Positions 12,309 to 30,107 of a stretch of DNA of 30,107 nt are shown piece after piece; the first letter of the stretch is position 1; each line of letters opens with the position of its first letter. Made by a program: the position numbers and the translations under genes. The DNA comes from a virus. Taxonomy: Duplodnaviria > Heunggongvirae > Uroviricota > Caudoviricetes. The notes under the pieces were generated by a model. The model ran no database searches, was not told the DNA's origin, and was given only the letters and a program-made list of their open reading frames with translations. The stretch spans positions 1 through 30,107 of IMG/VR virus record IMGVR_UViG_2698536535_000005. One strand, given 5' to 3'.

Positions 12309-12711
12309 TTAACAAGTTATTATCATGGGGTTTGTGGCTGTTAACCTGCAGTGAGGCGACAATCGTGTATTTATAAAAACTTCCCCTTTTCACTCCCCGC
12401 TGTTTCTTCTGCTATTTCCTTTATGTTTGCATGCAGCAACATCTACCATACCTTTGCAGAAAAATCAGAGCATTTAGTGCCGAAGGTTGGTTTATTGATG
12501 CTTTTTGTTTCATTTATTGCAATTATTGTCATTCAGAAGGGATCATCATGAAAAATCACGGAGTAAAGCCAGTTTTACTTTCCCGGGGGCAGATCGAAGC
12601 CCTGTAACGTATCCAGGCCGAAAAGCGTCAGAAATCTGTGCTTGGTGTGGCACCGTCGATTCATGTTATTGCCCGGCAACTGATGGATAAGGCACTTAAA
12701 GAGGTGAGGCT

Positions 12712-12984: not shown

Positions 12985-13083
12985 ATCAGTAAGGGGCGGT
13001 TATTGCCCCTTTCCTCCATACCCACAACGCATTCCCTTTTCGCATGAAATTATTTTTTATCGTATATGCATGAGGTGAGTTAC

Positions 13084-13608: not shown

Positions 13609-13615
13609 CGGCCGC

Positions 13616-13821
13616 AAAAAGTGTCAAGTTGAGCAGCTTGCCAGGTTGGCACTTTACACTCTGAACACGAAAAAGTGTCAACCTCGCTGTAAACCCTGCC
13701 ATTACTGGCCTTGAGCCATATTTACCACGCCAGAAACCCGTGAAAACCGCGAAAAGTGTCAAGTTGTCATGCTTAGAAATGCCAGGGTTTTTCGCGAAAA
13801 AGTGTCAAGTGTGTCAACCTG
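13616..13821. repeat. array of AAAAGTGTCAA boxes (putative protein-binding sites)
   Basis: Five GTGTCAA cores at 13621, 13675, 13756, 13803 and 13811, most preceded by an A-run, between the HTH gene and the next small ORF. Confidence 0.6.
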
Positions 13822-13850
13822 CGATATTAAGATTTCCTAAGGTGTAAACC

Positions 13851-14045
13851 ATGACCATCACCGAAGCCGATTTGCTGGATATAGTGCGCAGCGTGGCTGG
13901 AATTAGCGAATTGCCAAAGAAAGCCAGATTTGCCGATTATGCGGACGTGGTAGCTGCTGCAATGCAGCTAGAAGATCATGCTCCGAATGAAGGAGATTTG
14001 CTGCATATCCGCATCCGATCGGCGGCGATACTGGCAGCCCGTTGA
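13851..14045 (+). CDS. small hypothetical protein
   Basis: 64-aa ORF; weak support only. Confidence 0.3.
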   Translation: MTITEADLLDIVRSVAGISELPKKARFADYADVVAAAMQLEDHAPNEGDLLHIRIRSAAILAAR

Positions 14046-14399
14046 CGCCACCAGCATAGAGAGAACGCCGTGCCTTACGAGTGGAAGAAACCGGACATGC
14101 TGCGGCGATAACCCGTTGATTAAAAGACGGCTCAAAATTGAGCCGGGTAGCAGTTTGTCTGATTTATGCGTTTAGTTGTTGATATTGCCGATGACGAAAA
14201 ATTGCACTCTGTAGCTAGTGGGCGTTTATGTTGAAAACTGCCGATTCTGATAGGCTTTTATCATGCACTTGCATGAAAACTGCTCTGTGTAGCGGGCAGG
14301 CCTGCTGGGGAGAGCATTGCGCGCTTTAGTAGCAATAAAACACATCAATAAGGCTTTTTATTTTCTTGTATTATAAAATTATACTTATTATCTTGTTGA

Positions 14400-14429
14400 T
14401 TGACAGATAAAAACAAGGGATATGCATAA
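14400..14429 (+). promoter_or_regulatory. candidate sigma70 promoter for the 14433..16852 operon
   Basis: TTGACA (14400..14405), 18-bp spacer, CATAAT (14424..14429); so close to the ATG that either the transcript is near-leaderless or another promoter is used. Confidence 0.25.
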
Positions 14430-14432
14430 TAA

Positions 14433-15122
14433 ATGAACAAATCACCTACTGAGATAATTAATATGCTAAGCGATAAGTTCAATAGTAACTTTCGTGAATG
14501 GCAGGGCATACAAGATAAAAAATTAGATAAAGTAATTATCTCAATTTTCACTCTTAACACGATTGCTGAAATTTTGAATAAAAAGAAAACATCAGTTCAT
14601 CATGATGTTTGTATTAAAATTTTTAGTGAGATTATTGCTGATACGTCATCTTCTTTATATCTTTCTGCCTGTGCCATAGATAAACCAGCTAATATTGTTC
14701 TAAGGAGAGTTTTGGAACTAGGTGTCGCATCTATTTATCTTTGGGATATGCCTCATGTTGTATATTCTTGGAAAAATCATGATGAAGACTTAAGTTTCAG
14801 TGATATGTTGAAGCATATAACAAATCAAGGCTATATAGACTACTTCACAGAAAATGAGAAGATAGGAGGGAAAGTATGTGTTATTGATATGAGAAGAGCA
14901 CAGAAAATTTATGGACAATTAAGTGATATCGTTCATGGAAAAATAACCTCATTTGAAACTGATTTGCCTAATAAGTTCACTTTTGAAAGTGAAGATTGGG
15001 AGAGGTTCATAGGTCTGGCTGAGGTTGTTTTGGGTATGATAATTAATTCCAATATTGTTCGTCATAAGATAAGAAAAGAAGTGCTATCTTCATTTCCTAA
15101 ATCTAGTGAGGTAGTTTTATAA
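14433..15122 (+). CDS. hypothetical protein, component A of candidate two-gene system
   Basis: 229-aa ORF, strongly AT-rich; stop overlaps the start of the downstream ATPase gene (TAATG); no recognisable catalytic motif. Confidence 0.7.
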   Translation: MNKSPTEIINMLSDKFNSNFREWQGIQDKKLDKVIISIFTLNTIAEILNKKKTSVHHDVCIKIFSEIIADTSSSLYLSACAIDKPANIVLRRVLELGVASIYLWDMPHVVYSWKNHDEDLSFSDMLKHITNQGYIDYFTENEKIGGKVCVIDMRRAQKIYGQLSDIVHGKITSFETDLPNKFTFESEDWERFIGLAEVVLGMIINSNIVRHKIRKEVLSSFPKSSEVVL

Positions 15123-16852
15123 TGTCTATGTTAGACACTGAGTTATTACATGCAGCACGTACCGAAGATCTTGAGTTGAAACAGGTCAAACAACTGGCTG
15201 TTCTTGGTGAGTTTGAAAAAGATGTTGTAGCAAAACTAAAAATAGCGGGCTCTCATCTGATTCAGGGTGCCAGAGGAATTGGAAAGTCTATGCTTCTAAG
15301 AGCGGCAGAAGCTGAATTAGATAGTGATTTTCCTGTTAAAAAGATTGTGGGGGTATATGTTAATTTCAAAACCAGTACTTTGCTGGAAGGGGTTAAAGCT
15401 GACAATAAAAATGCATTTCAGATATGGGTAAGCGCTAAGTTACTACAAGCTTTGTACGAAAAGTTGATATTTTTAGATGTCATTCGTGACAATAATAGCA
15501 GTGATCCATTTCAAAGAATTTTTGGGATTAAAACTATAACTGGAATGAAAGATGCTCTACAATCTAAAATTCATCTGCTTCAAAGGTTATCAAGAGATCC
15601 TTCTTCAGATAAATTGTTGAATGAAATTGGAGAGGATTTTTTAGATAAGGTTAATGATATAAGTTATGTAAATGACATCATCAAGGAGATAATTCAAGAA
15701 TACCAACTTAATAGAATTGTTTTTTTATTTGATGAGGCTGCTCATACCTTTATACCAGAACAGCAGGAAATATTCTTCGAAATATTTAAATTGCTTCATG
15801 GCGGTAAAATTGCAGTTAAGGCGGCTGTATATCCGTCAATTACATCGTATGGTAAAAATTTTGAAGTTGGTCAAGATGCCATGATGATAAACCTCGGAGG
15901 ATACGAAACTGGAAATATTGGGCGGGAACGAACACGACGTTTATATCGTGATCTATTAGATAAACGGGTCACACAAGGAGCAGCAAAAAAGAGAATATTG
16001 GCTAAAGGTGATTTGCTAGATCAATGTATTCATCTTTCATCCGGAAACCCTAGAGCATTTCTCCATTTATTTAATAAAGTATATGAGAAAGGTTATACTG
16101 AAAGAGATCTTTTAACTTGCACTCAGGATTATGTCAATCAAGAATTATTACCTTATCATTTAGGGCTTTCAAAACGATTACCTAAGTATTCTCACCATGT
16201 TCGCATTGGACTTGATATTCTTAGGGAGTGTATTATCCCTGAGCTTAGATTGAAAAATAACAGAGAGAAAAAGACTCAAACCCAATCTGCTTTTTTTGTT
16301 CTTCCTCCCGTTATTTCTCCAAATCTTAGATTGTCTCTAGATTTGCTTTGTTATTCTGGTGTTCTTTCCAAGCAAGGGTCCGTGAAGATGTCTAATCGAA
16401 AATCGGGTCAGCGCTACATGGTTAATTTATCATTACTTTTCACTGAAAAAGCATTCGTATCTAATAAGTTCGGGGAGATAATAACACTATTATCTCTCGC
16501 TGATTATAAAGAATTTGGCGCAGCAGATTCTGAATTAGAGCGTTTTTTAGAAAAATTGAAAGAATCAGCTGATGAGTGTCAAACTTGTTCCGCTGAGTTA
16601 CCTGGAGATGCGAAGTTTTGTCCTAAGTGTGGGACACCTGTACCAACAAGGTCAATTGTAGGACAACTTCTTGATGATCCGGTTAGTTGCTTGTCAATTA
16701 GTAACGCAATATGCGACCGAATAAAAGAAACCTATCCTAAAGTGGGTGATATCGTTCACTGTTCGAGGGATGATCTGAAAAAAATACCGTACATTAAAAA
16801 TGTTAGGTCAAAAATAATCAAGAACGCAGCGGATGAATATATCTCAGGCTAA
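15122..16852 (+). CDS. Orc1/Cdc6-like AAA+ ATPase with C-terminal zinc ribbon and HhH (RNA polymerase alpha-CTD-like) domain, component B
   Basis: 576-aa ORF; Walker A GARGIGKS, Walker B IVFLFDEAAH, sensor-2-like SGNPRAF; C-terminal CQTC-x11-CPKC zinc ribbon; last ~60 aa resemble the RpoA alpha-CTD; GAGG Shine-Dalgarno; terminator downstream. Confidence 0.8.
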   Translation: MSMLDTELLHAARTEDLELKQVKQLAVLGEFEKDVVAKLKIAGSHLIQGARGIGKSMLLRAAEAELDSDFPVKKIVGVYVNFKTSTLLEGVKADNKNAFQIWVSAKLLQALYEKLIFLDVIRDNNSSDPFQRIFGIKTITGMKDALQSKIHLLQRLSRDPSSDKLLNEIGEDFLDKVNDISYVNDIIKEIIQEYQLNRIVFLFDEAAHTFIPEQQEIFFEIFKLLHGGKIAVKAAVYPSITSYGKNFEVGQDAMMINLGGYETGNIGRERTRRLYRDLLDKRVTQGAAKKRILAKGDLLDQCIHLSSGNPRAFLHLFNKVYEKGYTERDLLTCTQDYVNQELLPYHLGLSKRLPKYSHHVRIGLDILRECIIPELRLKNNREKKTQTQSAFFVLPPVISPNLRLSLDLLCYSGVLSKQGSVKMSNRKSGQRYMVNLSLLFTEKAFVSNKFGEIITLLSLADYKEFGAADSELERFLEKLKESADECQTCSAELPGDAKFCPKCGTPVPTRSIVGQLLDDPVSCLSISNAICDRIKETYPKVGDIVHCSRDDLKKIPYIKNVRSKIIKNAADEYISG

Positions 16853-16859
16853 AGAAAAG

Positions 16860-16883
16860 CCCCATGTAAATGGGGTTTTTTTT
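16860..16883 (+). terminator. intrinsic terminator
   Basis: CCCCAT-GTAA-ATGGGG hairpin (6-bp stem, 4-nt loop) followed by T8, 8 nt after the ATPase stop codon. Confidence 0.8.
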
Positions 16884-16892
16884 AATATGGGT

Positions 16893-17284
16893 TTATACTT
16901 TTAATGCCCGCCAATGCATTAATTCAATTCTTTGTATTAAATAATTAGATCTATTATAAGCTCTTCTGACTTCATTTCTATCAATATGAGATAATGACGT
17001 CTCTATTGCATCTGAATTAAACCCTGCTTCATTTAAAGTTTTACTCGCAATAGAACGCATCCCATGGTAACTAGCTTTCCACCGTAACCAATTCATTTAA
17101 GAGCAGCATTAGCCGTTTGACTATTCATTGGTTGCATAGGATCGTTTCTGCTAGGGAATACATATTCTCGATGACTACTAATAGGTTTCATCACATCCAG
17201 AAATTCTAATGCCTGTGGAAATAAATGAGCAATGTGTTTCCGGTTAGCCTTCATCCGTTCGGTGGGAATTGCGGAGGGCAGCAT
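16893..17284 (-). pseudogene. integrase remnant (C-terminal part of a P4-type tyrosine recombinase, frameshifted and 5'-truncated)
   Basis: Two adjacent minus-strand ORFs (16893..17096, 17093..17284) together align with the C-terminal ~130 aa of the integrase at 1611..2825 (FPSRNDP vs FPGRNDP; HIDRNEVRRAYNRSNYL vs HVDKNSIRGTYNHAQYL); no N-terminal half is present. Confidence 0.7.
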
Positions 17285-17680
17285 AAATGCAGAGGGAAAT
17301 CTGCAAATCCTAGGCTGGCCTTGCCATAAAGCGAAGACGGCGCGGGAGCATACAAGATGATAATTATTATTAGTAACAAAGGGGAGGGCGGGTCAAATCT
17401 CTGTACCCCTAGCTGTTCTGGACCGCCTGCCTCGTCAAATTTTTACACCCGCAAAATTAAAAAAAATACTTCACGCTGGTGGTTATCCTTGGGCATCCAC
17501 TAGCCTTTCATCATTGACTGCTGGTGAGGCTGAGACTCGAAGAAAAAGAGTGCTAGAGAGTCGGTTTTTGCACAGTTTGGGGTAAGGGAAAATTTATTGG
17601 GGGTACATTTGGGGGTATATATAAAAATGCAATGTAAAAATGTCATTAAATATCAATGCGATTGTTGTTTGTGTTTTGTT

Positions 17681-17696
17681 CCTATTATCGCACCAT
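17681..17696. repeat. attR core: degenerate direct repeat of the thrW 3' end
   Basis: CCTATTATCGCACCAT matches tRNA positions 1429..1445 (CCTATTATCGGCACCAT) except for one deleted G. Confidence 0.6.
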
Positions 17697-18302
17697 CAAG
17701 AAAATCAATAACTTAGCTTAACTTCTCTAAGAAATTGTATCTTCTGTTATCACTTACAAACGCCTATACGTTGTTATGGGCTTTGGTAGTGTAACACGTA
17801 TGGGCGAGTAGTTCCCAGGCTCAACCTCGTAACAAGTTCCTTTGAAGCTGGAAGACGTGCCACCGTCTCTAAACCTTCTACCAAAACTCTTAGCAAGATG
17901 TTCCACACCTGGCGCGGTGTCCAATGATGCTACACGTCGAGATGACGTCGCAGAGGATAAACAGGCTAAATGATGGGAAGAGTTTTAAGTGCAATAGTGG
18001 ATTAAAGCCCACCTCTTCAAAACCTAACTTGATCGGGAAAGAATCAAGCTCTAGCACGGTTTCGTCCACCGGAGTACAACGGGTGCCTGATAAGAGAAGA
18101 ACTGCTAAGACTTCATAGCTTTTGTGAAAAAGCCCTTTTTAGTGGATATGCCTACGGCGCTTATTTTTTGGTATAACCATCAAAGGCGCTTTATGGCTCC
18201 TATTGTCTTGAAAATGTATCTTTACTTGTATTGTGTTTTATGCGTAGTCTCCCTGTGTAGTATGTAACTTGTTAATTTTCATATGAATACAGAGGCAACA
18301 CG

Positions 18303-18455
18303 ATGAAAAACATTGCAGCTATAAAACGTAATAACCGCAAGATTCACGCTCGTAAGTTCCTGTCTACGCCAGAGGGAAAAGCCTGGCTAGAGCGTAAACA
18401 GCGAGAGAACGAAGAAAGAAAACTCCTTAGTGAGTTGAAATGGCTTAAGGATTGA
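18303..18455 (+). CDS. small basic hypothetical protein (50 aa)
   Basis: MKNIAAIKRNNRKIHARKFLSTPEGKAWLERKQRENEERKLLSELKWLKD; AGAGG Shine-Dalgarno 8 nt upstream; below the ORF-track cutoff. Confidence 0.25.
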   Translation: MKNIAAIKRNNRKIHARKFLSTPEGKAWLERKQRENEERKLLSELKWLKD

Positions 18456-19005
18456 ATCACCAGTAGGCGCATAACACATCCAGCAATCAAAGATGTGTTT
18501 GTGCGCCTGATAGTGAAATTATTAAAGTTTTTTAGTTAATGTAGCCATTGCATGAACGATGATCGCTAGTGAATCGATTTTATCTCGAGGGGTAAAATAG
18601 ATGAGGTATATGATGGTAACAATTACAGCTAAAGTAATTGTGGTTCTGCAGGTTTTTAAAATGGATAAGATAAAGCGCATAGATACCCCCTATTGATTTA
18701 ACAACAACAAGGTATCATTTATTTTTTATTGCATGCAATGTGCAAATTTTCACATATAATAGCTTACTATTCACTTTGCATGGTGTCAACAAGATGATGT
18801 GTTGTTTTGTTTGATTTGTTCAAGATAATATTTCATTTTCTCATCTATATAACTTGTGTTTTAGATAATTTCACTAATTGTAAAAGTTACGTATTGCTTA
18901 ATAGCTGCCTTTTTATCTGAAATCGGCGCAAACGTGATCAATGTTTAACGCGAAGATCAGCGGCGTCAGGTCCACGCAGCGACAATTCTCAAATATCAGG
19001 AGGCA

Positions 19006-19563
19006 TTACGCTTCCTGCTCTTTCTTGATACGTTGCACCGTCTGTGTGCTGACACTGAAATCTTTTGCTACGCTCCGAATTGATCCACCATTCGCGAGAG
19101 CGGCAACAATTCCCGCTCGATCAATTGCTTTTCCATTACCACGTTTTGCTATACGTCCAGCGGCCTTAGCTGCGGCAATCCCCTCACGTTGCCGCTCAAG
19201 CATCATTTCACGTTCCATTTGTGCCACTGCTGCAAGCACTGTGAGCATCATATTCCCTGCGGGAGAGTTCTTCCCTGTCTTAAAGTCTTCTTTATGGAAA
19301 TGCACAGACACGCCGCGCTCTGTTAATTGCTCAACCGTTGCCAGTAGGTCGGCTGTATTACGGCAAAGTCGATCAATGCTGTGAACATGCAAAACATCAC
19401 CTTCACGCACATAGTTCATCATTGCCTCAAACTGTGGGCGCTGGGTATTCTTGCCTGACGCTTTATCTTCAAAGACTTTATCAAGAGTTACTCCAGCTAA
19501 TTGACGGTCTGTGTTTTGTTGGACAGTCGATACCCTAATGTATCCAATATTAGCCATTTTCAT
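19006..19563 (-). CDS. serine recombinase (resolvase/invertase family)
   Basis: 185-aa protein; N-terminal catalytic motif GYIRVSTVQQNTDRQ with the nucleophilic Ser; small-recombinase length with C-terminal HTH-like region (GGSIRSVAKDFSVSTQTVQRI). Confidence 0.85.
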   Translation of the reverse strand: MKMANIGYIRVSTVQQNTDRQLAGVTLDKVFEDKASGKNTQRPQFEAMMNYVREGDVLHVHSIDRLCRNTADLLATVEQLTERGVSVHFHKEDFKTGKNSPAGNMMLTVLAAVAQMEREMMLERQREGIAAAKAAGRIAKRGNGKAIDRAGIVAALANGGSIRSVAKDFSVSTQTVQRIKKEQEA

Positions 19564-19584
19564 TTTCCTTCTGTGTTGATTTGT

Positions 19585-19688
19585 GTGTAGTGATTATTGA
19601 TCGTGTTGATTAGGTGTGTAAAGGACTTTTTTCACTACGAAATTCGAAGGTTTTTAGTGTGGTGATTTAGCCTGCTTTATCACTACAC
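19585..19688. promoter_or_regulatory. putative res/recombination site upstream of the serine recombinase
   Basis: Four related half-sites: GTGTAGTGA (19585..19593), TCACTAC (19632..19638, inverted), GTGTGGTGA (19657..19665), TCACTACAC (19680..19688, inverted). Confidence 0.4.
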
Positions 19689-20085
19689 GTCTTGCATGAG
19701 AATCATGTAGTTATGTTTTGGTAAAATTAGCAAGCTATTAAATAGCGTGTTTATTTTGAAAAAATTAATTTTTTCAACACGTGAAAGGAACTTGTTCGAC
19801 AAATAATAGATTGATTTTTAATCAACAATTTCTGATAGTGCTCTGTAAGCCACATTACACAAGGCGCAGCGAAAGTGATGTAAAAGTGAAGAAAGCTAAC
19901 ATTGCACTTTTAAGCTACTTTTCATTGAATTTTTAGTATGGAATTACATAGGGATTAATCATCAATTAATCTTGAATTTAAGCCTGTTTTAGATGTTTAA
20001 TTTTTGATAGCAAGAAACACTTTTAGAAGATCATTGCACAGATGTTATGTGATAAATGGATGTAACGGTAGGTCACTGTGAACTA

Positions 20086-20222
20086 CCCCCCACAGAATTC
20101 TGTTATCCTTAACTTTTAAAGAAATATGCACCCTAACAGAAAACTGTTACCCCAACCCTAACAGAATTATGTTAGACACCCCCACAGAAAACTGTTAGCC
20201 ACCCCTACAGAATTTTGTTACC
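20086..20222. repeat. five palindrome-containing iterons (consensus about CCCYAACAGAAWWCTGTTA)
   Basis: Units at about 20086, 20129, 20154, 20180 and 20203; the last four tandem with a ~24-bp period; each contains ACAGAAnnCTGT-type inverted repeat (ACAGAATTCTGT is a perfect palindrome). Confidence 0.7.
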
Positions 20223-20909
20223 TATTAGATCAACTATCAAACTACAATTAAATTATCTTTTATAAATTCTTTTATCTTTAAAGAATAATTATAGGGATAC
20301 CCGTTAGGGGAGTCTTCGACTATCCCTTAATCTATTGGCATTCGCCAGAACCTTGCACAAGTTAGAGTGTTAGTCGTTAGACTGCTTGTCATAACACATA
20401 GTTTTTTGTTTGTTGATGTTAGTTAGTAGATCTATGTTCGCTAATGCCGCTCACAACGAATATGTAATCTACTATGTGCAAATAGCCTACGGCTTGCGTA
20501 AGGCTAAATAGTCTTGCGCTGTGCGCAGAACGATAATTAACTAACTACCATCTAACGATCATCAATCTATTTAAGAGAAAATCTATTGTGCAATACTCTG
20601 ACGAGTGCAATAACCTTGTGTGCTACGCGTTAGCGATGTTAGCACATAGACACAGACAACAACCAACAACAAACAAAAAAGAATGGTTTTAGTAGTTGAA
20701 GGTTAAATAAGATTCTACCGCTTAAATCAAGCCGTAGGCGAGCTAAACAGCCATTACATAAGGGAATGTATTGTTTTTATCAAAACCTCGTTAGAACGCG
20801 TTTTAGAGCGTTTTAGACAATAATAAAGAATAGCACTACACATGAGAGCACGAATTGCTAAGAAATATCATAACTTACTGAAAATCATCAATATTTATAT
20901 GGATAGGGG

Positions 20910-20938
20910 TTGACAAAAGCTTTTAGTCGTGGTAAAGT
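20910..20938 (+). promoter_or_regulatory. candidate sigma70 promoter for the rightward small-gene operon
   Basis: TTGACA (20910..20915), 17-bp spacer, TAAAGT (20933..20938), about 120 nt upstream of the 21059 ATG, which has an AGGAGG Shine-Dalgarno. Confidence 0.4.
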
Positions 20939-21058
20939 AATATTAGGGACAGAAAACATTCTTATCCTCTAAGTAATTAAACCAATGCACCGCACTTTGA
21001 AGCCCAAGGCTTGCAAGGTGTCTTTTTCTTTTAACCAAATAGAATAGGAGGTTAATTA

Positions 21059-21259
21059 ATGAAGTATTACACTCCACAGGATGTAATCGAAGCCTGGAAA
21101 CGTGGTGAGATCAATCGTTTTAAAGTAAGGATGAACAGGAACACAGCGCGACGCTGTGGTTATCCAGAGCGTGAAAAATGCTTTGACGATGCACTAAAAA
21201 TTATTGATGAATTAAGAAAAAATGAAAAAGGATCTGAAAAAGAATCTGAAACAGAGTAA
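21059..21259 (+). CDS. small hypothetical protein
   Basis: 66-aa ORF with perfect AGGAGG Shine-Dalgarno. Confidence 0.5.
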   Translation: MKYYTPQDVIEAWKRGEINRFKVRMNRNTARRCGYPEREKCFDDALKIIDELRKNEKGSEKESETE

Positions 21260-21278
21260 AGAAGAGAAGGAGAAAACT

Positions 21279-21449
21279 ATGAGCGAAACTACAGAAAAGA
21301 AAAGACAACCACGCACTTGCTTTCATATTCCTGATGAAGTATTTCAGGTGTTGTTTAAAGAAGCCAGAAGTAAACGTATCACTGTTACAGATTACATTCT
21401 TGATATGTTGAAAAGAGAGGCTGAAACACTCTCAAACAAAAGCAAGTGA
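21279..21449 (+). CDS. ribbon-helix-helix-like small DNA-binding protein (tentative)
   Basis: Start taken at the ATG preceded by AAGGAG (track ORF starts 21222 and overlaps the upstream gene); segment RTCFHIPDEVFQVLFKEARSKRITVTDYILDMLKRE fits the RHH strand-helix-helix pattern. Confidence 0.45.
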   Translation: MSETTEKKRQPRTCFHIPDEVFQVLFKEARSKRITVTDYILDMLKREAETLSNKSK

Positions 21450-21502
21450 TTTTTATCACCATAGTAGCGCCGTAGAGCGTGATTACATCAAGGAGATTTT
21501 TA

Positions 21503-22072
21503 ATGATTAATGAAGAACAATTTGTAAAAGTTCCTATGTGGATTCTAAAAATAAGCCAAGTAAACGGGCATAAATTTACAGATAGTGCTAAAAACCTTTA
21601 CTGCTATTTGAGAGGGTTTGATCGTGCATTTCCCTCTTACGCTAAGATAGGCGATGTTTTTGGCATAACACCAAGAGCAGCAGAAGAAAGGGTTAAGAAA
21701 TTGCTCGAAATGGGATTAATTATAAAAGATGCACGACCAGGAAGCTCTAACCTTTATCGAGTGCTTGATATTCCAAAAGGAGAATCATCACTACCTGATC
21801 CTTCTGAGAAAGAAGACGAATCTAATGAAATATTGAATGTTTCCGAAATCATCGTTGAAGAAGAAACACAGGAATCAGAGTTCCCTGAGCGGCCCGAAAT
21901 TTTTACTTGGCTTCTTTCCCTTGATAAGAAGAAACCACCGCACGAAGAAACAGAAGATTTTGTAAAACGTGCATTAGATTCAAAGAATATCTATCTTGAG
22001 AAACAGGCTTTTCACGATCTGATAATATCTCTAAGAGAAAAAAGTGAAATATACGATTCAATACCATTCTAA
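21503..22072 (+). CDS. winged-helix/HTH protein with acidic C-terminal region (possible replication initiator or regulator)
   Basis: Start at the ATG preceded by AGGAG (track ORF starts 21479); N-terminal PMWILK...NLYCYLRGF...IGDVFGITPRAAEERVKKLLEMGLI is HTH-like; acidic tail. Confidence 0.5.
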   Translation: MINEEQFVKVPMWILKISQVNGHKFTDSAKNLYCYLRGFDRAFPSYAKIGDVFGITPRAAEERVKKLLEMGLIIKDARPGSSNLYRVLDIPKGESSLPDPSEKEDESNEILNVSEIIVEEETQESEFPERPEIFTWLLSLDKKKPPHEETEDFVKRALDSKNIYLEKQAFHDLIISLREKSEIYDSIPF

Positions 22073-22081
22073 GGAGAATAA

Positions 22082-22351
22082 ATGACTTATAACATCACTA
22101 TAGGAAACAAAACTATTGAAATAACTGAAAGCGGATACAACATTTTAAAAGCTATTTTGGACATAGAGTTCTCACCCCCGACAGTGGTTAGCTTTTGTAG
22201 TTTAGGCGGCTACAGCGCACAACATGTGAATCATTGGTTAAACCATTTTACATCGTTCGGTGTGCTGGATTATGAAGGGATTAACCACACTACATTTCGT
22301 CTTTTGAAATTAAACAAAGATTTTGAATTGTTTATCACAAACAATCAATAA
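22082..22351 (+). CDS. hypothetical protein
   Basis: 89-aa ORF with AAGGAG Shine-Dalgarno. Confidence 0.5.
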   Translation: MTYNITIGNKTIEITESGYNILKAILDIEFSPPTVVSFCSLGGYSAQHVNHWLNHFTSFGVLDYEGINHTTFRLLKLNKDFELFITNNQ

Positions 22352-22447
22352 CAACAGATCGGGCAATACATATGGCAAATGCATTTATGGCGATATTCAT
22401 CGTAACAATGGTATCAAGTTTTTATAATCCACATAAAAAGAAGGAAA

Positions 22448-22831
22448 ATGGGAAGAAAGAAAAAGAACAACTTAAAACGTATTGAAAAAAACAGTAACTT
22501 CAATTCAACAAGACAACGTCCACCGACACACACCAATAACGAAATTCCAGGGGAAGAGATAATATTTATTCTTGAAACAGAATCCCCTGAATTAAGCGAT
22601 GAAGAACAAGAAATAATCAAATCAATGCCAGGCGTTTACTTTCGCCCAAGAACAAGAAAACAAACAATAATTTCTGATGGCACTCTGAAACGTTGGCAGC
22701 TTTTAGGGTTTAGCTCCTATCATCATTTTTTGGGATTTAACGCTTTCAATAATTGTGTAGGTGGTGCATCGGAAGTCGATCTGATGGCTCATTTAGAAGA
22801 TACATTAGCTTCTAACAAACGCTCTAACTAA
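22448..22831 (+). CDS. hypothetical protein
   Basis: 127-aa ORF with AAGGAA Shine-Dalgarno; basic N-terminus. Confidence 0.5.
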   Translation: MGRKKKNNLKRIEKNSNFNSTRQRPPTHTNNEIPGEEIIFILETESPELSDEEQEIIKSMPGVYFRPRTRKQTIISDGTLKRWQLLGFSSYHHFLGFNAFNNCVGGASEVDLMAHLEDTLASNKRSN

Positions 22832-22846
22832 TAAAAGGATGGTCGT

Positions 22847-23092
22847 ATGTATAAGCGCCCAATGAAAATATTCGAAAAAGGAAAAATAATGATTGGCTAT
22901 ATTCAAGAAACACAATTATTTCAGATGATCCTGTCTGATGCAAAAAACTATGCTGAGTTAATCCGACTGGCAAAAGAAACAGAAGACTACGAAGCATTAG
23001 AGCGTTATCGTGATGAAGTGCTGACGCTCAAGACACCTTTTAACATCGTATTGAATATGATTAATGATGCATTACAAGGAGAAGCCGCATAA
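22847..23092 (+). CDS. hypothetical protein
   Basis: 81-aa ORF with AAGGA Shine-Dalgarno. Confidence 0.45.
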   Translation: MYKRPMKIFEKGKIMIGYIQETQLFQMILSDAKNYAELIRLAKETEDYEALERYRDEVLTLKTPFNIVLNMINDALQGEAA

Positions 23093-23403
23093 TGGAAGAA
23101 GATATTAGCAATGCAATGGAACAACTTTTAGATCTGACTATCTCACTACAAACAAGAATAAATCAAGCCTATTCAGATTTATGCGATTACACGCTCTCTC
23201 AATGCGTTATTAGCTTAATGAAGGTGAATGTAAGCCTTGACGATTTTATCTCTCTGGTGAGCGATTTAGAGCTAATTGAGGACGATGCCAAGATGTGCAC
23301 TCAAACCATCACAGACACCGCCAGCACGTTAAAGGCTGCAAGTGAAGAGATTCAGCAATTAGTAGATGATTTAGCAAAAAGTGCTATTCCCTCTAAATGG
23401 TAA
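23092..23403 (+). CDS. hypothetical acidic helical protein
   Basis: 103-aa ORF; start overlaps the previous stop (TAATG). Confidence 0.45.
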   Translation: MEEDISNAMEQLLDLTISLQTRINQAYSDLCDYTLSQCVISLMKVNVSLDDFISLVSDLELIEDDAKMCTQTITDTASTLKAASEEIQQLVDDLAKSAIPSKW

Positions 23404-24391
23404 TGAAAATCATTTGCATTTATATAATAAAAATGTTATATTAGTATTAAGGGTAGATAAAAAGGTTTTGACTGGTGTTAATCCTTCTACTGTCATAAAT
23501 CCCTGCATATGGAAGGTGATAGCCTCAAGGGTTGAGTGGCATTAACCTCTAACAAATATTACCTTCCATCTCTCAAGAAGTTTTAGAATAATCATAACTC
23601 CCTCTTTGATTGTTGATTGTTTCTACGTTGTGTTGATGAATGTTGTTAGGCATTGTGCTTAATTTTGATAAAAGCGGGTAGGTGTTATCTCCTTGCCCTT
23701 CCCGCTCTTATTTTTCATCTATGCTTATCCTAAAGCTCCTTATTTTGTCCGAAAACATTAAAGAGCCTTACACTGATAGTTATATTTTATAACTATTTAC
23801 TAACATCATTAAACTCTTATTTAATGACAGAAGTTAGTAACAGAATAATCTATTAAGTTGTTGTCAAAAAACTATCATCTGCATAGCGTTAGCCGCAAGC
23901 AGAGAGAGTTTAGCTAAGAATTGTGCAATAACCTTTGGAAATATTGATAGCAAAACGGGTTTTATAGACTGCAAATCTATAATCTTTGGTTGTAAAAACG
24001 CTTTTTCTGAAACGGTAGATTATTGTTGGTGTAGTTAATCCCTATTAAAATTTAATCTGTGAGTAGATTGGAATAGTGATTCCTTAAAATCTGACTGGTG
24101 CATCCACACCATGAAAGATAGCGGTTAGCCACCGCACCCGAATAGATATTCCTGATTGATTCCGCATGTTTTCCTAAGAGCATGTTTTCAGGAATATCTG
24201 TTCACCCTTTAAACCTATCTTTAAGCATGTTTAATAAGCATTCTTAGAGATACGTTTAAAACCTCCTCAAGGTTTTACTTATCGCTGTGTATTGCCCGAC
24301 ACGTTAATAAATCCCCCTCGCTATTCTCAGATTGAACCTCTTATAGCCTGGGGGATTTATTAAATTCCAACATAATGGAATCGTTATATAA

Positions 24392-24601
24392 ATGAAACAA
24401 GAAATTATCCTGAAATATGGCAATGAAAAGTTAACACTAACTGAAGATGTGTTGAATGCTACAGCCTACGCGCTTGGTATCACTCCCACAGAATTAAAGA
24501 AACAGTGTGAACGTCTTTATAAGGCTGAAAGCAATAAACCATCTCACCAAGATTTGATTAATGCTAAAGCTCAACAAATCAAACAATCTAAGGAAAAATA
24601 A
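24392..24601 (+). CDS. small hypothetical protein
   Basis: 69-aa ORF; stop overlaps the start of the next gene. Confidence 0.4.
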   Translation: MKQEIILKYGNEKLTLTEDVLNATAYALGITPTELKKQCERLYKAESNKPSHQDLINAKAQQIKQSKEK

Positions 24602-24975
24602 TGGCTATTTTAAAATTAAGCGATGTTTTCCTACATCGTAAAAGCATCACTGACGTAGTGAGCTATGCAACCGACCCTTACGCGGCTGTAGAAAGCAAAA
24701 AATTTGCAGCACTTGCACAAGATGTAACGTGCGGCGACCTCATTGATTCATCCGGCGCTAAATATGTTAGCGGCGCTGATGTTCTTGTCGTTGTGTCTGA
24801 CTTCGTAACTGCTGATTCAAATAAAACAGTTAACGTGCTTCGTGCTAATGCCGGACTCGTTTGCATCAAAGCTGATGCCCTGAATGCCGAAGGCGCTGTA
24901 AAAGAAGCTGCTATTGCAGCTCTCGCTGCTAAAGGCTTCCAGCTTGAAGGCTTCCACTCTGTTTTCACATCTTAA
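24601..24975 (+). CDS. hypothetical protein, possible virion decoration or scaffold-type protein (speculative)
   Basis: 124-aa ORF immediately upstream of a ~340-aa gene, the lambda D-E type arrangement; Ala/Val-rich; no direct motif evidence. Confidence 0.5.
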   Translation: MAILKLSDVFLHRKSITDVVSYATDPYAAVESKKFAALAQDVTCGDLIDSSGAKYVSGADVLVVVSDFVTADSNKTVNVLRANAGLVCIKADALNAEGAVKEAAIAALAAKGFQLEGFHSVFTS

Positions 24976-24991
24976 GAAGGAATAAATAATA

Positions 24992-26020
24992 ATGATTATC
25001 GGAAATGAAGTGGTTGATCTTGCTCCACTGTTCGAATTAAACGACTCACGCAATTACCTACTGTCTACTCTGGATTTTACTGATCCTGTGCCTGTAGAAA
25101 GTCACAAAGTGGCTGTTTCCCAGCTTATCGAGAGCAATGAATCTCTGTTCAACCATCCTACAAGCCGTTTTAGCTCTGAGCATAACGTTACTAAGCGTGA
25201 GAACGGGGAAGAATATCTTATTGAAATCCCGTACTTTTTAAGGGAAGACCTGATCAAACCGCAGGACGTGCAAGGCAAACGCAAAGCCGGAAGCTCTATT
25301 GAAGAAACACTGCCGGATCTGTATGCGGAATATATCGCTAAACACAATGTTGCATTCCAGCGCACTAAAGAAAGCATCCTCGCGGCTTCTCTGTTCTCTG
25401 GCAAGACACACACCCCGAAAACTGACGATGTTCTGATCGATTACAGCACTCTGTTCGGTGTGTCTCCAATGACTGCAACCGTTGACGCATCCAGCACCAA
25501 CACAATGACCGTATTCAAGCAATTTGATCAGATGCATACGGATATGATTGCTAAGGCACAAAGCCAGGCTGCAACCATTGAGCGTGTTGTTGTGTTCTGT
25601 AAACCTGCGGCATTCAACGCTATTCGTTACAGCGTTGGCATGGTTAATGCGTTCCAGTATGCAAGCCCTGTAGACGATGCAAACGTGGTGTTTAATGTGC
25701 GTTCTCTGCTGCCTGGTGTAACTACTTTCACCATTCCAGGAACTAACATTGACCTGATCAAAGTGACTGATCCGCTGCTGCTGGCACATATGACCGCTGA
25801 CGCTGTAGCTATTCCTAAACTTGCTAAGGGGGCAGGTGTTTACCAAGCTATTTTTGGTGCGCCTTCCAGTTCATTCGATCTGCTGTCTCAAGGCGCTAAA
25901 GAGTATTACAGCTATGCTTTCGAATCGAATCGCGGCGACGCAGTGCACGTAGTGACCGAGAATAGCTCGCTTGTGGTTAACCACGGTGTTGGCTTCTCTG
26001 TGCAGATCACAGTAGCGTAA
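24992..26020 (+). CDS. hypothetical protein, possible major capsid-like protein (speculative)
   Basis: 342-aa ORF with strong AAGGAA Shine-Dalgarno; size and position after a ~120-aa gene resemble the lambda gpD/gpE arrangement; similarity to gpE not demonstrable by eye. Confidence 0.55.
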   Translation: MIIGNEVVDLAPLFELNDSRNYLLSTLDFTDPVPVESHKVAVSQLIESNESLFNHPTSRFSSEHNVTKRENGEEYLIEIPYFLREDLIKPQDVQGKRKAGSSIEETLPDLYAEYIAKHNVAFQRTKESILAASLFSGKTHTPKTDDVLIDYSTLFGVSPMTATVDASSTNTMTVFKQFDQMHTDMIAKAQSQAATIERVVVFCKPAAFNAIRYSVGMVNAFQYASPVDDANVVFNVRSLLPGVTTFTIPGTNIDLIKVTDPLLLAHMTADAVAIPKLAKGAGVYQAIFGAPSSSFDLLSQGAKEYYSYAFESNRGDAVHVVTENSSLVVNHGVGFSVQITVA

Positions 26021-26172
26021 AAAGTGTTAAAGACGTTCCCCTACGTCTGGAAATAATCGGGGCAATAAGGGTAAGGGATAATCATATAAGCAAAATATGC
26101 GCTGTCTCTTGCCCTTTTTGTTTTTCTACTGTCTACAAACCTAAATAAAAATATATATGTGAGAGAAAACCA

Positions 26173-26370
26173 ATGAACACAGAAAATTCACAGGCATTAA
26201 TTCTTAAATCTGTAAAAGAACTGGCAGCTATTAGCGATGACTCAATAATCAATGTCAGTGCCTTATGCAGAATGCTTTCAATTGATGCAAATAATGTGCG
26301 TCAGCGTGTCTTTCAGACTGGATGTAGCACTTTCGAAGCAATCCAATATTATTGCTCTAAAAAACAATAA
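26173..26370 (+). CDS. small hypothetical protein
   Basis: 65-aa ORF between two larger genes on the same strand. Confidence 0.4.
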   Translation: MNTENSQALILKSVKELAAISDDSIINVSALCRMLSIDANNVRQRVFQTGCSTFEAIQYYCSKKQ

Positions 26371-26404
26371 CAAATAACAATCATAATACAGGGAAACAAT
26401 TAAC

Positions 26405-28246
26405 ATGTTAGAGCTAAACGTGGCACGCCTCTCGAACGTTGTCACCTTCGAAGTTAACCGACCATCATTAGAGAAAGCAAAAGCAGAAGTAGAAAAACTT
26501 CGTAAACAAATGGCGGCGGTGAAAGATATAGAATTGCGTGTTAAGACACATAAACAATCAACCGCTAAAGCAAAAAAAGACGTAGACGATATTGCTAAAA
26601 AGCAAGCACAGGCTGATAAAGCTAATGCTAAAGCACAATTAGCCGCTCAACGTGTAGTTGCAAGAGAACAAAAAGCCCTGGCAGCACGCAAAGAGAAGGC
26701 AGAATTAAAGCTTTTAGACGTTGGAGCAAGCATTAGTGCAATGCACCGTCTTTCTGTAGCGGAACAATATAAAGCTATTGCACAGGCTAGAGAAATTGCC
26801 CTCCAATATGAAAGAGGCGCTATTAGTCTGGCACGTATGAATAGCCAAATGAAACGCCTACAACAGCAACAACGTAAGATTAATGGCAATCGTAACGCTC
26901 ACGCTAAAGCCTATGCACCTGTTAAGGGTAGCGGGAGTATTGGCGGCGGTGCTGCGGCTGTTATGCTGGGTGGCTTAGGCGCTGGCGCTACGTATATGGC
27001 TATGAGCAAAGCCTCTGAATTTGTTACTAACAGCTTTGCGAATGCTGAAACGCTGGGTGAATTGTATAGCCGTGCGAAGCTGGGCGGTGTAGACGTTAAC
27101 CAGATGAACAATATTGAGCAATGGGCCTACAAAAACGGCGTTGATTCAATGATGGGCGAACAAGGTCGTAGGAAGTATCTCGATCAGATGAAAGATGTAC
27201 GGGAGAAGGCTACTAAATCTTATGATGAGGCTGAATATGTAGTTGATAAGAAAACTGGTAAAGGAGAATGGAAGGGCGGCGATAGCGGCATCAATACTTT
27301 AATGAATGAAGGATTCCTAACTAAAAAGGATCTAAAAGACTTTGCTGATAATCCGGCTGGTCTGGTTAGTAAAGCAGTTCAGGGAATGGTAGCTAAAGGC
27401 TATTCAGATGCACAAATCGGTAGTCGTCTGGAAGATCTGGCTGATGATTTGATGCTCACCTCTAAATACTGGACACGCTCCGCTAAAGAAGTGGAACAAT
27501 CAGCACGAGAACAACGAGAATCAGGGCGCTGGGTAACGCAGGCACAACAGGAAAGCGTTATTAAATTCCGTGAACTGAATAATGCACTTAGTGGGCTTTC
27601 TGACTCACAAGGGATCGCCTTTGTTGATGGCTTTATGAAATCTCTTGATCCGAAAGTGATTGAAGAGTTTAAAAAGAGCATGGTTGCAATGCTGCCAATG
27701 TTTACCAAATTAGGCGAGGCTATCGGCGGATTGGTTAACGCCGTAATGAAAACAATCAACTGGCTGATGAAAAACGACGAGAAGACGGAAGCTATTCAGA
27801 AGAATTTAGGGGATGCACCGCCACTATCTAACGAAGGAATGAAGCAGAATCTTTCTAATCTCACTCCTGATCAATATAAAGGCGCTGGCACCGGAACAAC
27901 TAAGCCAGATAACAGCAATTCCCTGGTTAACACTATTAAAAGCTGGTTTATGCCAGAAGAAACGGTAGGTGGGGCGCAGGCTGTAAATCAATACAGTCTC
28001 GAAGGACAAAATATTGCAAATCTGAAACAGAGTGCAGCACAACAAGCTTTCAAGGCTCCTTCTTACACCTTTGCACCTGTTATTAACTTCAATCCAGAAT
28101 TACAAGTAAATGCAGAAGTGCCGCTAACTATCGAATCAGACACCGGACGATTGAGCGAATTTATCGACTTCAAATCAAAGGCATCTTCCGCTGAGTTTAG
28201 CAAGCTATTAACGCTGGGTGTTATGTCAGGCGGGTCAACCTATTAA
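26405..28246 (+). CDS. large coiled-coil protein with Gly-rich hydrophobic segment (tape-measure-like or internal virion-like; function unknown)
   Basis: 613-aa ORF; N-terminal ~130 aa Lys/Ala-rich coiled coil; GSGSIGGGAAAVMLGGLGAGATYMAM hydrophobic Gly-rich segment; no enzymatic motif. Confidence 0.6.
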   Translation: MLELNVARLSNVVTFEVNRPSLEKAKAEVEKLRKQMAAVKDIELRVKTHKQSTAKAKKDVDDIAKKQAQADKANAKAQLAAQRVVAREQKALAARKEKAELKLLDVGASISAMHRLSVAEQYKAIAQAREIALQYERGAISLARMNSQMKRLQQQQRKINGNRNAHAKAYAPVKGSGSIGGGAAAVMLGGLGAGATYMAMSKASEFVTNSFANAETLGELYSRAKLGGVDVNQMNNIEQWAYKNGVDSMMGEQGRRKYLDQMKDVREKATKSYDEAEYVVDKKTGKGEWKGGDSGINTLMNEGFLTKKDLKDFADNPAGLVSKAVQGMVAKGYSDAQIGSRLEDLADDLMLTSKYWTRSAKEVEQSAREQRESGRWVTQAQQESVIKFRELNNALSGLSDSQGIAFVDGFMKSLDPKVIEEFKKSMVAMLPMFTKLGEAIGGLVNAVMKTINWLMKNDEKTEAIQKNLGDAPPLSNEGMKQNLSNLTPDQYKGAGTGTTKPDNSNSLVNTIKSWFMPEETVGGAQAVNQYSLEGQNIANLKQSAAQQAFKAPSYTFAPVINFNPELQVNAEVPLTIESDTGRLSEFIDFKSKASSAEFSKLLTLGVMSGGSTY

Positions 28247-28293
28247 TCATCACTGTGGGGCGGTTTAGCCCCCTTAAATAAGGATTACAAATT

Positions 28294-28971
28294 ATGGCAA
28301 TGGGTCCGTTAACCATTGGTCGCCCGACTGAGGCGAAAATCAACAGCACAAGCAACGATAGCAACGGTAGAACAACTAAAGGGGGTAACGGCTTTGCGAT
28401 CATTACCTCTAACCTCGGCAGTGGTGCAAATGCTGCTTACAATGACTACCAGGCATTATCATTTGATAGCGTGGAATCGACGAAAATTAGCCGAAATGCA
28501 GACGTTACAAGCTATGCCGTCGAATCAGGATCAGAAGTTAGTGATCATGTTCAAATACGGAATAACAAGTTCACATTACAGGGGCGTATCTCTGAAACAG
28601 TATTGAAGCTCAATCCCGATATGATTAAGAATGCGGGAATTAACGGCAATAGACGTATGCTTATGCTTGAATACCTAAATCAGTTGATGGACAGTCGCCA
28701 ACCTTTCCTACTTGTCACTGAGTTAAAAAATTATGACAACGTTGTGTTAGTTGGCATGTCTTACGAAGAAGAAGCAAGCGAAAGCCTATTGTTTACTCTT
28801 GATTTTGAGCAAATCCGTCTTGTCTCTAAAGCAACTACAAGCGCAATTGCGGTAAAAACAGCACCAAATAAATCTGTAGGAGGTCAGGTTAAAATGCAGG
28901 TAAATACAACAGAACAGAAAAATCAAAAAAGCCCAGGGCAAGACGTTGTAACGCCAGTATTTAAACAATAG
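28294..28971 (+). CDS. hypothetical protein
   Basis: 225-aa ORF with AAGGA Shine-Dalgarno; convergent with the downstream integrase. Confidence 0.55.
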   Translation: MAMGPLTIGRPTEAKINSTSNDSNGRTTKGGNGFAIITSNLGSGANAAYNDYQALSFDSVESTKISRNADVTSYAVESGSEVSDHVQIRNNKFTLQGRISETVLKLNPDMIKNAGINGNRRMLMLEYLNQLMDSRQPFLLVTELKNYDNVVLVGMSYEEEASESLLFTLDFEQIRLVSKATTSAIAVKTAPNKSVGGQVKMQVNTTEQKNQKSPGQDVVTPVFKQ

Positions 28972-29012
28972 CCTTAAACACCTATGAAACGCTCTGTAAC
29001 GAGATAATCATA

Positions 29013-29044
29013 AAAGAGGCATTAGTCTATATTGAAGCCTCTTT
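29013..29044. terminator. possible bidirectional terminator hairpin between convergent genes
   Basis: AAAGAGGC/GCCTCTTT 8-bp stem with a 16-nt loop; weak T tail; low support. Confidence 0.25.
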
Positions 29045-29051
29045 ATTACGT

Positions 29052-30050
29052 CTATAGCGTTGTTTTACGCCTTAAATTTGATTTTTTATTGATTGATAAG
29101 CCTTTCTCTATTTCAGGGTAGCGTAAAAGCTCAATATATTTTTTAAGCTCTACTGGAGAAGCTGCATTCTTGCTATATGTGCGGAATGTTTCTGTATTGC
29201 CGCGCTGATGGCCCAAAATTAAAGCTATGCGGTCCTCTGGAATTTGATTTCGATCAAGAAGCTGTGCTACTCCGTGTCTCAGAGAATGAAACACTTTCCT
29301 TTCTGTTCCCTTTTCCCCTAAAGCCTTTCGTTTAGCTCTTGTAAATCGTTGTGTATGCCACGTAGAGCGTTTACCGTCAGCACGTTCTGTAATGCTGGCG
29401 TGATAGAACAAAAAGCCATTGTGAGGCTTTTCACGAAGAGATAACACCAATGGAGTGATAAGGCTATGCACAGGCACAAGACGTGCCGCAGCTTTCGTTT
29501 TTCCCTGTGTGATTTCAAAACACAGCACACCTTCGATCTCTTTCACATCGTCTATTGTGAGACTTGCTATCTCATTGATCCGCATACCTGTATATAAACC
29601 GATAAGACACAAAGCCGTCATTTCTTTGTTTTCTGCTGAATTACCGGAAAATACTTGCAACACCTGCAATAGCTCTTTGTTAGAAAATGCCTCGTAGCTC
29701 TCTCTACTTTGTGCCACATCAAGCCTATGCCCTCGCCAGGGGGAGAGCGCCCTTTCTGGCGCATCGTGGTAACGTGATGAAGCTAATTCCCATAGCTGGG
29801 CCATTGGGCTGATATAATTTGCAATTGATTGTTGTGAAAGAGTTTTTTGCATATGTTCAATCCAGCCTGTAACAGTGGTGCGGCTTACATCTTGCAATGC
29901 AATATCAGGCTTTTTACGGTAGGAGAGAAACATCTCTACCGCTTTTCTTGCCTTAGCTAAAGTGGCTGGCTTCTTCTTCGTGCTGTTAATTGTCAGGTAG
30001 ATTTCAAGAATTTTAAGCAATGACGGACACGAAGACGCTGTATCTTGCAT
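29052..30050 (-). CDS. tyrosine recombinase / phage integrase (different family from the thrW-proximal integrase)
   Basis: 332-aa minus-strand ORF; C-terminal catalytic region with HSLRHGVAQLL (H-x-x-R) and a downstream tyrosine; lacks the long P4-type N-terminal arm-binding domain. Confidence 0.85.
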   Translation of the reverse strand: MQDTASSCPSLLKILEIYLTINSTKKKPATLAKARKAVEMFLSYRKKPDIALQDVSRTTVTGWIEHMQKTLSQQSIANYISPMAQLWELASSRYHDAPERALSPWRGHRLDVAQSRESYEAFSNKELLQVLQVFSGNSAENKEMTALCLIGLYTGMRINEIASLTIDDVKEIEGVLCFEITQGKTKAAARLVPVHSLITPLVLSLREKPHNGFLFYHASITERADGKRSTWHTQRFTRAKRKALGEKGTERKVFHSLRHGVAQLLDRNQIPEDRIALILGHQRGNTETFRTYSKNAASPVELKKYIELLRYPEIEKGLSINKKSNLRRKTTL

Positions 30051-30107
30051 TCTGGTAGCTGTTTTGGCGTATTTAGCCTTACTGCGTAACTGAACCGCCC
30101 CGGGTTT

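Follow-up and report, generated by a model that had tools for sequence, protein, structure and literature searches.

Does the right-hand part of the proA-thrW locus of Escherichia coli, as present in the virus record IMGVR_UViG_2698536535_000005 of IMG/VR (positions 1 to 30,107; the whole 30,107-nt stretch is called the window here), belong to the integrated island on its left, or is it an element in its own right? In the window, proA ends at 1254 and is followed by the tRNA gene thrW, a first island (island 1) and then the segment considered here, region 2. A sequence-only reading of the window had suggested that region 2 could be separate from island 1, and we now find that it is: region 2 is an independent integrative element of ~12.9 kb that forms a tandem array with island 1 at the 3′ end of thrW. 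The integrase gene of this copy is 5′-truncated and disrupted by an insertion sequence (IS), and gene content places region 2 in a family of putative phage satellites that has already been published. We put the probability that all three statements hold, namely independence at thrW, an IS-split integrase and membership of that family, at roughly 0.85. The layout of the locus is as follows, with attachment sites abbreviated as att.

1369..1444, plus strand: thrW, tRNA-Thr(CGT), predicted with ARAGORN; the shared att site and left end of the tandem array
1445..17679, plus strand: island 1, a separate element that lies between thrW and region 2 and encodes a P4-type integrase (1611-2825) and a primase
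17680..17695, plus strand: copy of the thrW core minus one base (one G), TCCTATTATCG-CACCA, at the junction of island 1 and region 2
17697..30090, plus strand: the part of region 2 present in the window; putative phage satellite, its right side cut by the IS; 99.9% identity with the CAU16175 element
29052..30090, minus strand: 3′ 1039 nt of the tyrosine integrase gene (~residues 80/81-425), with the SAM-like and catalytic domains kept and DUF6538 gone
30091..30107, no strand assigned: first 17 nt of an IS629-like element of the IS3 family, the terminal inverted repeat on its orfB side; TGAACCGCCCCGGGTTT

Independent insertion at thrW

Comparison of genomes revealed four configurations of the locus. 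Island 1 occurs alone, from thrW to LysR, in SCU-316 (99.7% identity), where the match stops exactly at window position 17696, one base before the start that the sequence-only reading had set for region 2, and where the right end of the island carries the same G-less core. Region 2 occurs alone, immediately after thrW, in CAU16175 (99.9% identity), with an intact integrase and, beyond its right perfect core, a yagP remnant and paoD. The order thrW, region 2, island 1 is found in F8111-1SC3, where a perfect core separates the elements, and likewise in several IMG/VR loci. The order of the window itself recurs in E189, in which thrW is followed by an island-1-like element and by region 2 with an intact integrase, then yagP′ and paoD. 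For the empty site, thrW was joined to the DNA just right of the region-2 attR to give a 600-nt query, and this junction was counted as present in any of 5426 complete E. coli genomes if at least 80% of the query matched in one place. The reconstructed attB was matched at 100% identity in one piece, and this empty thrW junction is present in 948 of the 5426 genomes; the thrW-to-region-2 junction is present in 393, and the region-2 element is at least partly present in 761 (~14%). The four configurations together with the empty site indicate precise, independent insertions into one att site.

The att cores fit this arrangement. The 3′ core of thrW (TCCTATTATCGGCACCA) lies at 1428-1444, the single perfect copy in the window by pattern search, and the last 21 nt of thrW are identical to the attR of intact region-2 copies. 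The G-less variant at 17680-17695 is also found at the right end of island 1 in loci L003 and L004, and alignments to region-2 copies that abut thrW begin at 17680. Because this core copy marks where island 1 meets region 2, region 2 has its left boundary inside the window, and the sequence-only reading, which had put both boundaries outside, was wrong on that side. It was right about the other: these are the only two core copies in the window, none lies near the integrase, and intact relatives have a perfect thrW core ~145 bp past the integrase start, which puts attR of the window copy past 30107. Both region-2 cores are present in CAU16175, F8111-1SC3 and E189, whereas the window shows the left one only, and core copies were found at every element junction compared. 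The locus is two elements with three att copies, two of them in the window and one (core ACTCCTATTATCGGCACCAT) expected past the IS.

It might be argued instead that island 1 and region 2 form one composite island that moves as a unit with a single att pair, given that the two adjoin in the window and that just two core copies are visible there. Yet each is found alone at thrW and both orders occur, a core copy lies between them wherever they are adjacent, and the empty site contradicts a single unit. Their integrases are unrelated as well, as the difference in type noticed from the sequence had implied: that of island 1 combines Arm-DNA-bind_3, Phage_int_M and Phage_integrase domains and that of region 2, in its intact form, DUF6538, Phage_int_SAM_5 and Phage_integrase, and the BLASTP match between them is not significant (E value 0.096). 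Genome comparison contradicts joint movement, and we give the composite island next to no chance.

The integrase of region 2 lies at the tRNA-distal end and is transcribed inward, a layout that, with the standard behaviour of tyrosine recombinases, suggests how independent insertion would proceed. The enzyme would recombine an attP core equal to the last 19-21 nt of thrW with thrW, which would regenerate the tRNA gene and place another core copy at the distal end. Either copy could then serve as a target for elements, such as island 1, whose integrase is unrelated but has the same core specificity, and tandem arrays in both orders would result. In the window, island 1 would have entered the thrW-proximal copy later; its position between thrW and region 2 accounts for the core copy at 17680-17695 at their junction.

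Some variation was seen at the site itself. The thrW of CAU16175 (L001 17983-17999), which region 2 abuts directly, ends in GGCAACA rather than GGCACCA at its 3′ end and has an annotated length of 73 nt instead of 76. Genomes also differ to the right of the att site: some carry a full-length yagP/LysR gene and ~6.5 kb more genes before paoD (L003 21644-28174 type), and others a 5′-truncated yagP that adjoins paoD directly (L001 31091-31429 type). In E. coli KL53 (L155, CP030919), the occupant of thrW is a hybrid in which mmuP, mmuM and afuC of CP4-6 type are fused to a right half of region-2 type, the latter spanning the 69-aa (amino acid) open reading frame (ORF) through the integrase.

The disrupted integrase

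A tyrosine recombinase gene does read leftward at the right edge of the window, convergent with a plus-strand cluster of head/tail-like genes, as the sequence-only reading held; 29052..30050, however, which had been taken for the whole gene, is only part of it. The frame is open to the window edge, and homology to the intact 425-aa protein runs from 29052 to 30090 and then stops abruptly. Phage_integrase (E value 2e-17) and Phage_int_SAM_5 (2e-7) are both detected in the window copy, and the DUF6538 domain is missing because the IS splits the gene after ~codon 80. The integrase gene was found in 452 complete genomes, and all 15 of the alignments listed stop at 30090, as do 19 of 19 alignments to IMG/VR loci that reach the integrase.

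The remaining 17 nt explain the break. The 17-mer TGAACCGCCCCGGGTTT occurs once in the window, with 0 occurrences expected by chance, and in another family member (L091) the exact 17-mer abuts genes for an IS3-family OrfB (rve) and OrfA (HTH_Tnp_1), an OrfA/OrfB element which we take to resemble IS629/IS1203. Another locus, L048, was considered as the full IS reference copy and was dropped for want of a match in E. coli genomes; L091 was used instead. The IS629-like element of L091 lies in the left arm of that family member (L091 8069-9324 / L021 ~1940-3240), and this different position implies that the IS has hit the family more than once.

The exact IS junction was found in no complete genome of the collection, nor in the species-representative genomes, and megablast with 25 kb returned no complete genome covering at least 80%. 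The 332-aa product of the truncated integrase ORF has no database record, 8 listed genomic contexts of the exact Dit-like protein described below all lack an IS in the integrase, and neither the missing 5′ end of the integrase gene nor the attR flank was detected anywhere else in the window. With its integrase split by the IS, the window copy is probably unable to excise by itself, and the end of the window is probably a contig break from the repeated IS. The annotation of the locus is settled to this extent: it holds two elements, and the integrase of the second is a pseudogene.

Virion-like genes, a candidate replicon and a link to Phapecoctavirus

What kind of element is region 2? Its gene content was scanned with Pfam and PHROG across all ORFs of at least 50 aa, and its right half holds a compact cluster of virion-like genes.

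24392..24975, plus strand: 69-aa ORF, then a 124-aa head-decoration-like protein (one source labels a cluster member 'Head decoration protein')
24992..26020, plus strand: major capsid protein, 342 aa, Phage_cap_E (Pfam PF03864, E value 6e-18); ~25% identity to Phapecoctavirus capsids
26173..26370, plus strand: conserved 65-aa ORF between the capsid and tape-measure-like genes
26405..28246, plus strand: tape-measure-like protein, 613 aa (PHROG 16051, E value 6e-31); ~30% identity to Phapecoctavirus tape measures
28294..28971, plus strand: Dit-like baseplate protein, 225 aa (Pfam Dit_like, E value 2e-27); 52.6% identity to gp234 of phage nieznany

The best matches in cultured phages (capsid 25%, tape-measure-like 30%, Dit-like 52.6%) are to ~150-kb virulent myoviruses, Phapecoctavirus and relatives. 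The decoration and capsid genes of phage nieznany are followed by about ten genes for neck, sheath and tube, then by the tape-measure gene and, immediately downstream, the gene for the Dit-like gp234. Region 2 keeps this order minus the middle block, and its decoration-like gene, upstream of the capsid gene, is placed as in nieznany. Neither region 2 nor more than 30 relatives contain portal, terminase, protease, sheath or tube genes, and alpA, head-tail adaptor and Pri-Rep genes are absent from the scanned ORFs of region 2.

Such an order, which equals that of a myovirus structural module once the genes for neck, sheath and tube are taken out, could also be left behind by a full-size prophage that lost structural genes by deletion and is now decaying without function, and both the broken integrase of the window copy and the stretches of ~1-1.5 kb without genes are in keeping with that idea. 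However, the ratios of nonsynonymous to synonymous substitution rates (dN/dS) against a divergent family member (L021) are 0.09 (capsid), 0.15 (decoration and Dit-like alike) and 0.20 (tape-measure-like), values that indicate purifying selection on the four predicted virion genes. The compact gene order is kept in E. coli copies with 60-72% aa identity and in other genera, larger relatives with portal or terminase genes were not seen, and the replicon of Rep protein and iterons, described below, is modular and mirrored by phage nucleases. A functionless remnant is therefore highly improbable, and a maintained satellite remains the reading that we prefer.

The capsid and decoration genes look to have been exchanged as a cassette between highly divergent alleles. 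In F8111-1SC3 (L004 14641-16070, compared with window 24601-26020), the two proteins are of equal length to those of the window but share only 30% (decoration) and 20% (capsid) aa identity with them, whereas the flanking products (tape-measure-like, Dit-like and integrase) are 95-99% identical.

The left part of region 2 holds a candidate replicon and several smaller genes.

18303..18455, plus strand: conserved 50-aa ORF of the left arm, from family comparison
19006..19563, minus strand: small serine recombinase of the resolvase/invertase type, 185 aa (Pfam Resolvase, E value 1e-38; PHROG 125 DNA invertase, 2e-62)
20084..20220, no strand assigned: five iteron-like repeats with a 22-24 bp period (CCCnACAGAAnnnTGTTA), a candidate replication origin
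21059..21449, plus strand: two small ORFs of 66 aa and 75 aa (the second 56 aa in RefSeq), the second with a weak Arc-like repressor match
21479..22072, plus strand: RepA-like initiator, 189 aa from the annotated start at 21503 (Pfam HTH_36; PHROG 270 replication initiation, E value 1e-8)
22082..23403, plus strand: four small conserved ORFs of 89, 127, 81 (or 67) and 103 aa, syntenic in L021, L161 and L163
23404..24391, no strand assigned: ~1 kb without annotated gene or long ORF, upstream of the structural genes and conserved among relatives

Iterons and Rep alleles vary together across the family. Between alleles, Rep is conserved in its C-terminal half, and the N-terminal domains are just ~28% identical; different 22-bp repeats occupy the same position in other alleles (TTCCTACCTACCTAGGAAATGAG in allele B), and alignments break at the iteron array in every non-A allele. 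By allele, the arrays lie at 20084-20220 in the window, 10049-10145 in L004 and 1883-1931 in L010. A single allele-C iteron (GGTAGGTCACTGTGAACTAC) is found at 20068-20087, just left of the window's own five, as if marking an earlier replicon swap.

The Rep gene also ties the element to a phage. With 19500-24500 as nucleotide query, a 355-bp match at 99.2% identity came up in Phapecoctavirus Mt1B1_P17, and the winged-helix DNA-binding domain of Rep (21503-21817) is identical at 104 of 105 aa (99.2% at the nt level) to residues 1-105 of gp053 of that phage. This 328-aa protein (L164 4042-5028) has two Rep-type DNA-binding domains, at residues 1-105 and ~119-210, followed by a C-terminal nuclease domain of the T5orf172/MUG113 type (PHROG 681 endonuclease, E value 2e-18; MUG113, 4e-4; T5orf172, a weak 0.037). 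The architecture is that of the anti-satellite nuclease Odn of phage ICP1, which has a domain like the RepA of PLE and cuts the iterons of the PLE origin (PMC8263062). The second gp053 domain, for which the 2023 paper on the family (introduced below) reported no detectable satellite partner (PMC10448857), shares 88% aa identity with the Rep domain of another family allele (L010 3270-3938), an allele also present in L011, L012, L015 and L029. Judged from these domain matches, one phage nuclease may target two replicon types.

Other parts of the left half are conserved to varying degrees. The stretch 17680-18453 is ~98% conserved, also in otherwise divergent family members. The serine recombinase is a variable accessory gene, absent from L004 and given a 'Resolvase' column in Table S6 of the published family; an invertible segment beside this invertase-like gene was looked for and discarded, as at least 30 relatives showed no inverted alignments. 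The four small ORFs at 22082..23403 have dN/dS values of 0.11-0.59 against L004. Two hairpins, at 24140-24203 (16-nt arms) and 24304-24363 (21-nt arms, 90% complementary), lie within 23404-24391, which has no Rfam match and no match in phage genomes; an Rfam scan of 17000-30107 found nothing. No PADLOC model matched the ORFs without assigned function or the cargo of island 1.

Together these features correspond to a family proposed, from sequence only, as satellites of phAPEC8-like (Phapecoctavirus) myoviruses (Barth, Dunham & Seed 2023, NAR Genom Bioinform lqad076; PMC10448857). In that work, the RepA_N domains of phage nucleases led to 224 putative satellites of this kind in E. coli and its near relatives (Fig. 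8, Table S6), which are described with this gene set, att sites close to tRNA genes, modular RepA_N domains and, in a subset, a resolvase (PMC10448857). Table S6 lists CP047378.1 (CAU16175) and AP024521.1 (E189), whose sequences begin with AGAAAATCAATAACTTAGC, that is, window position 17700 onward. In region 2, the N-terminal domain of RepA is shared with a phage T5orf172 (odn-like) gene through gp053, and decoration, capsid, tape measure, baseplate and integrase genes occur without terminase, protease, alpA, adaptor or Pri-Rep genes. By its gene content, region 2 is a member of this family of putative satellites, of which a near-identical copy was already listed. Because family and near-identical copy are both published, region 2 is nothing new in kind.

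For induction, replication, packaging and interference, we infer the following course for the region-2 family. During Phapecoctavirus infection, the element would replicate from its iterons with its own Rep, and portal, terminase and tail parts would be taken from the helper phage; the Odn-like nuclease of the phage, with its copy of the Rep domain, presumably cuts the origin of the element. The same genes could be read in another way, as a chromosomal anti-phage island whose decoy capsid, tape-measure-like and baseplate proteins poison Phapecoctavirus assembly and which the phage neither packages nor transfers. That its structural proteins find their nearest homologues in virulent phages, that the capsid and decoration cassette is swapped (20-30% identity) within 95-99% identical flanks and that the phage appears to carry a counter-measure would all suit such an island. 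Nevertheless, the integrase, att sites, replicon and patchy, mobile distribution at tRNA genes of several genera fit a transferable element, and no PADLOC model was matched. The proposal also overlaps the satellite reading, since known satellites defend their host too. We consider a purely defensive island very unlikely and favour a satellite.

Several points nonetheless count against the reading of region 2 as an independent, IS-interrupted satellite. Just 17 nt of the IS lie within the window and the right end of the window's own copy is not visible; attR and the start of the integrase gene may either follow on the far side of the IS or have been removed by an IS-mediated rearrangement. The similarity of the capsid and tape-measure-like proteins to those of Phapecoctavirus is low (25-30%), and comparably weak matches exist in Pseudomonas and Campylobacter myoviruses. 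A literature search found no experiment on excision, helper-dependent replication or packaging for any family member.

Relatives outside Escherichia have the same organisation. A Klebsiella pneumoniae element (L161 1127-15142) shows the same compact layout at tRNA-Gly(CCC), with the integrase at the far end and a 24-27 nt direct repeat whose copies are 13.9 kb apart, and an element of Serratia proteamaculans (L163) has the same gene order; a capsid scan of genome contigs among species-representative genomes yielded 3 loci only. The K. pneumoniae element carries two sets of 32-bp iterons (5138-5403) and a small tyrosine recombinase in place of the E. coli resolvase.

Four observations go beyond the 2023 paper: a partner for the second nuclease domain, the exchange of the capsid cassette, the relatives in Klebsiella and Serratia, and tandems in both orders with an island bearing a P4-type integrase. 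They lead us to propose, tentatively and at somewhat less than even odds for the whole, that the arms race is broader than published, with a dual-target nuclease, cassette swaps and a reach into Klebsiella and Serratia, and that the locus stacks two satellite-type elements. Should island 1 be a P4-like satellite, the elements stacked at thrW would be satellites with different helper phages.

Neighbouring features and known systems

G+C content falls to 34-44% from ~14 kb onward in the window. The cargo of island 1 at 14433-16852 is of low G+C (34-35%) and encodes a 229-aa protein and a 576-aa ORC/CDC6-like AAA+ protein with a zinc ribbon; at the same position, E189 has a methyltransferase, a DUF262 protein and a HEPN nuclease, and the site looks like a variable, possibly defence-related hotspot. 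At 16893-17284 on the minus strand, two short ORFs each cover part of a Phage_integrase catalytic domain, and the near-identical copy in SCU-316 is annotated as a frameshifted, partial integrase. These fragments indicate that island 1 holds the remnant of a second integrase at its right end.

Several known elements were considered and rejected as the identity of region 2. A P4-like satellite, which would have a P4-type integrase (Arm-DNA-bind_3), an alpha primase and psu, sid and delta, is not supported, as the integrase architecture differs and region 2 has no primase, psu or sid matches. The right end of CP4-6 (yagL to intF) gave no blastn match; IntF shares 25% identity over 153 aa and has a different N-terminal domain, and YagL shows no significant similarity. 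Sp1 and Sp2 of O157 Sakai are different elements without DNA similarity to region 2. The settings are nonetheless alike: CP4-6 of K-12 uses the same att site and has IntF at its far end, next to yagP, and in O157 Sakai two unrelated elements, Sp1 and Sp2, are annotated in tandem at thrW.

Region 2 resembles a cfPICI in being a small integrative element with its own major capsid and decoration-type proteins. By definition, however, a cfPICI has terL, head-tail adaptor and connector, protease, alpA and pri-rep genes and lacks tail genes (PMC10085698), whereas region 2 has no terminase, portal, protease, head-tail adaptor, connector, alpA or Pri-Rep and does have tape-measure-like and Dit-like genes. 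With the required genes undetected and tail-related genes present, we rejected this class also.

With the satellites of Barth et al. (2023), region 2 shares RepA, decoration, capsid, tape measure, baseplate and integrase genes, the optional resolvase and, as far as the left core copy in the window shows, the tRNA-proximal att layout. Unlike the CAU16175 copy, its integrase is split by an IS, its right att is not in the window and it lies behind another island. The family has been little studied, and the large virulent phAPEC8-like phages, of which its members are proposed from sequence to be satellites, are candidates for therapy.

A close parallel is PLE of Vibrio cholerae, likewise integrated, of similar size, with a modular initiator and iteron replicon and a proposed dependence on a virulent myovirus. 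As with PLE and Odn (Barth et al. 2021, eLife e68339), a phage T5orf172 nuclease carries a copy of the DNA-binding domain of the element's Rep; the domain identity is 99% between region 2 and gp053 and 42% between Odn and PLE RepA, the E. coli family being known from sequence. Hosts and gene content differ from those of PLE; capsid, decoration, tape-measure-like and baseplate proteins are encoded by region 2 itself. If the family does behave like PLE, an element present, at least partly, in ~14% of complete E. coli genomes could both block phAPEC8-like phages and be carried by them.

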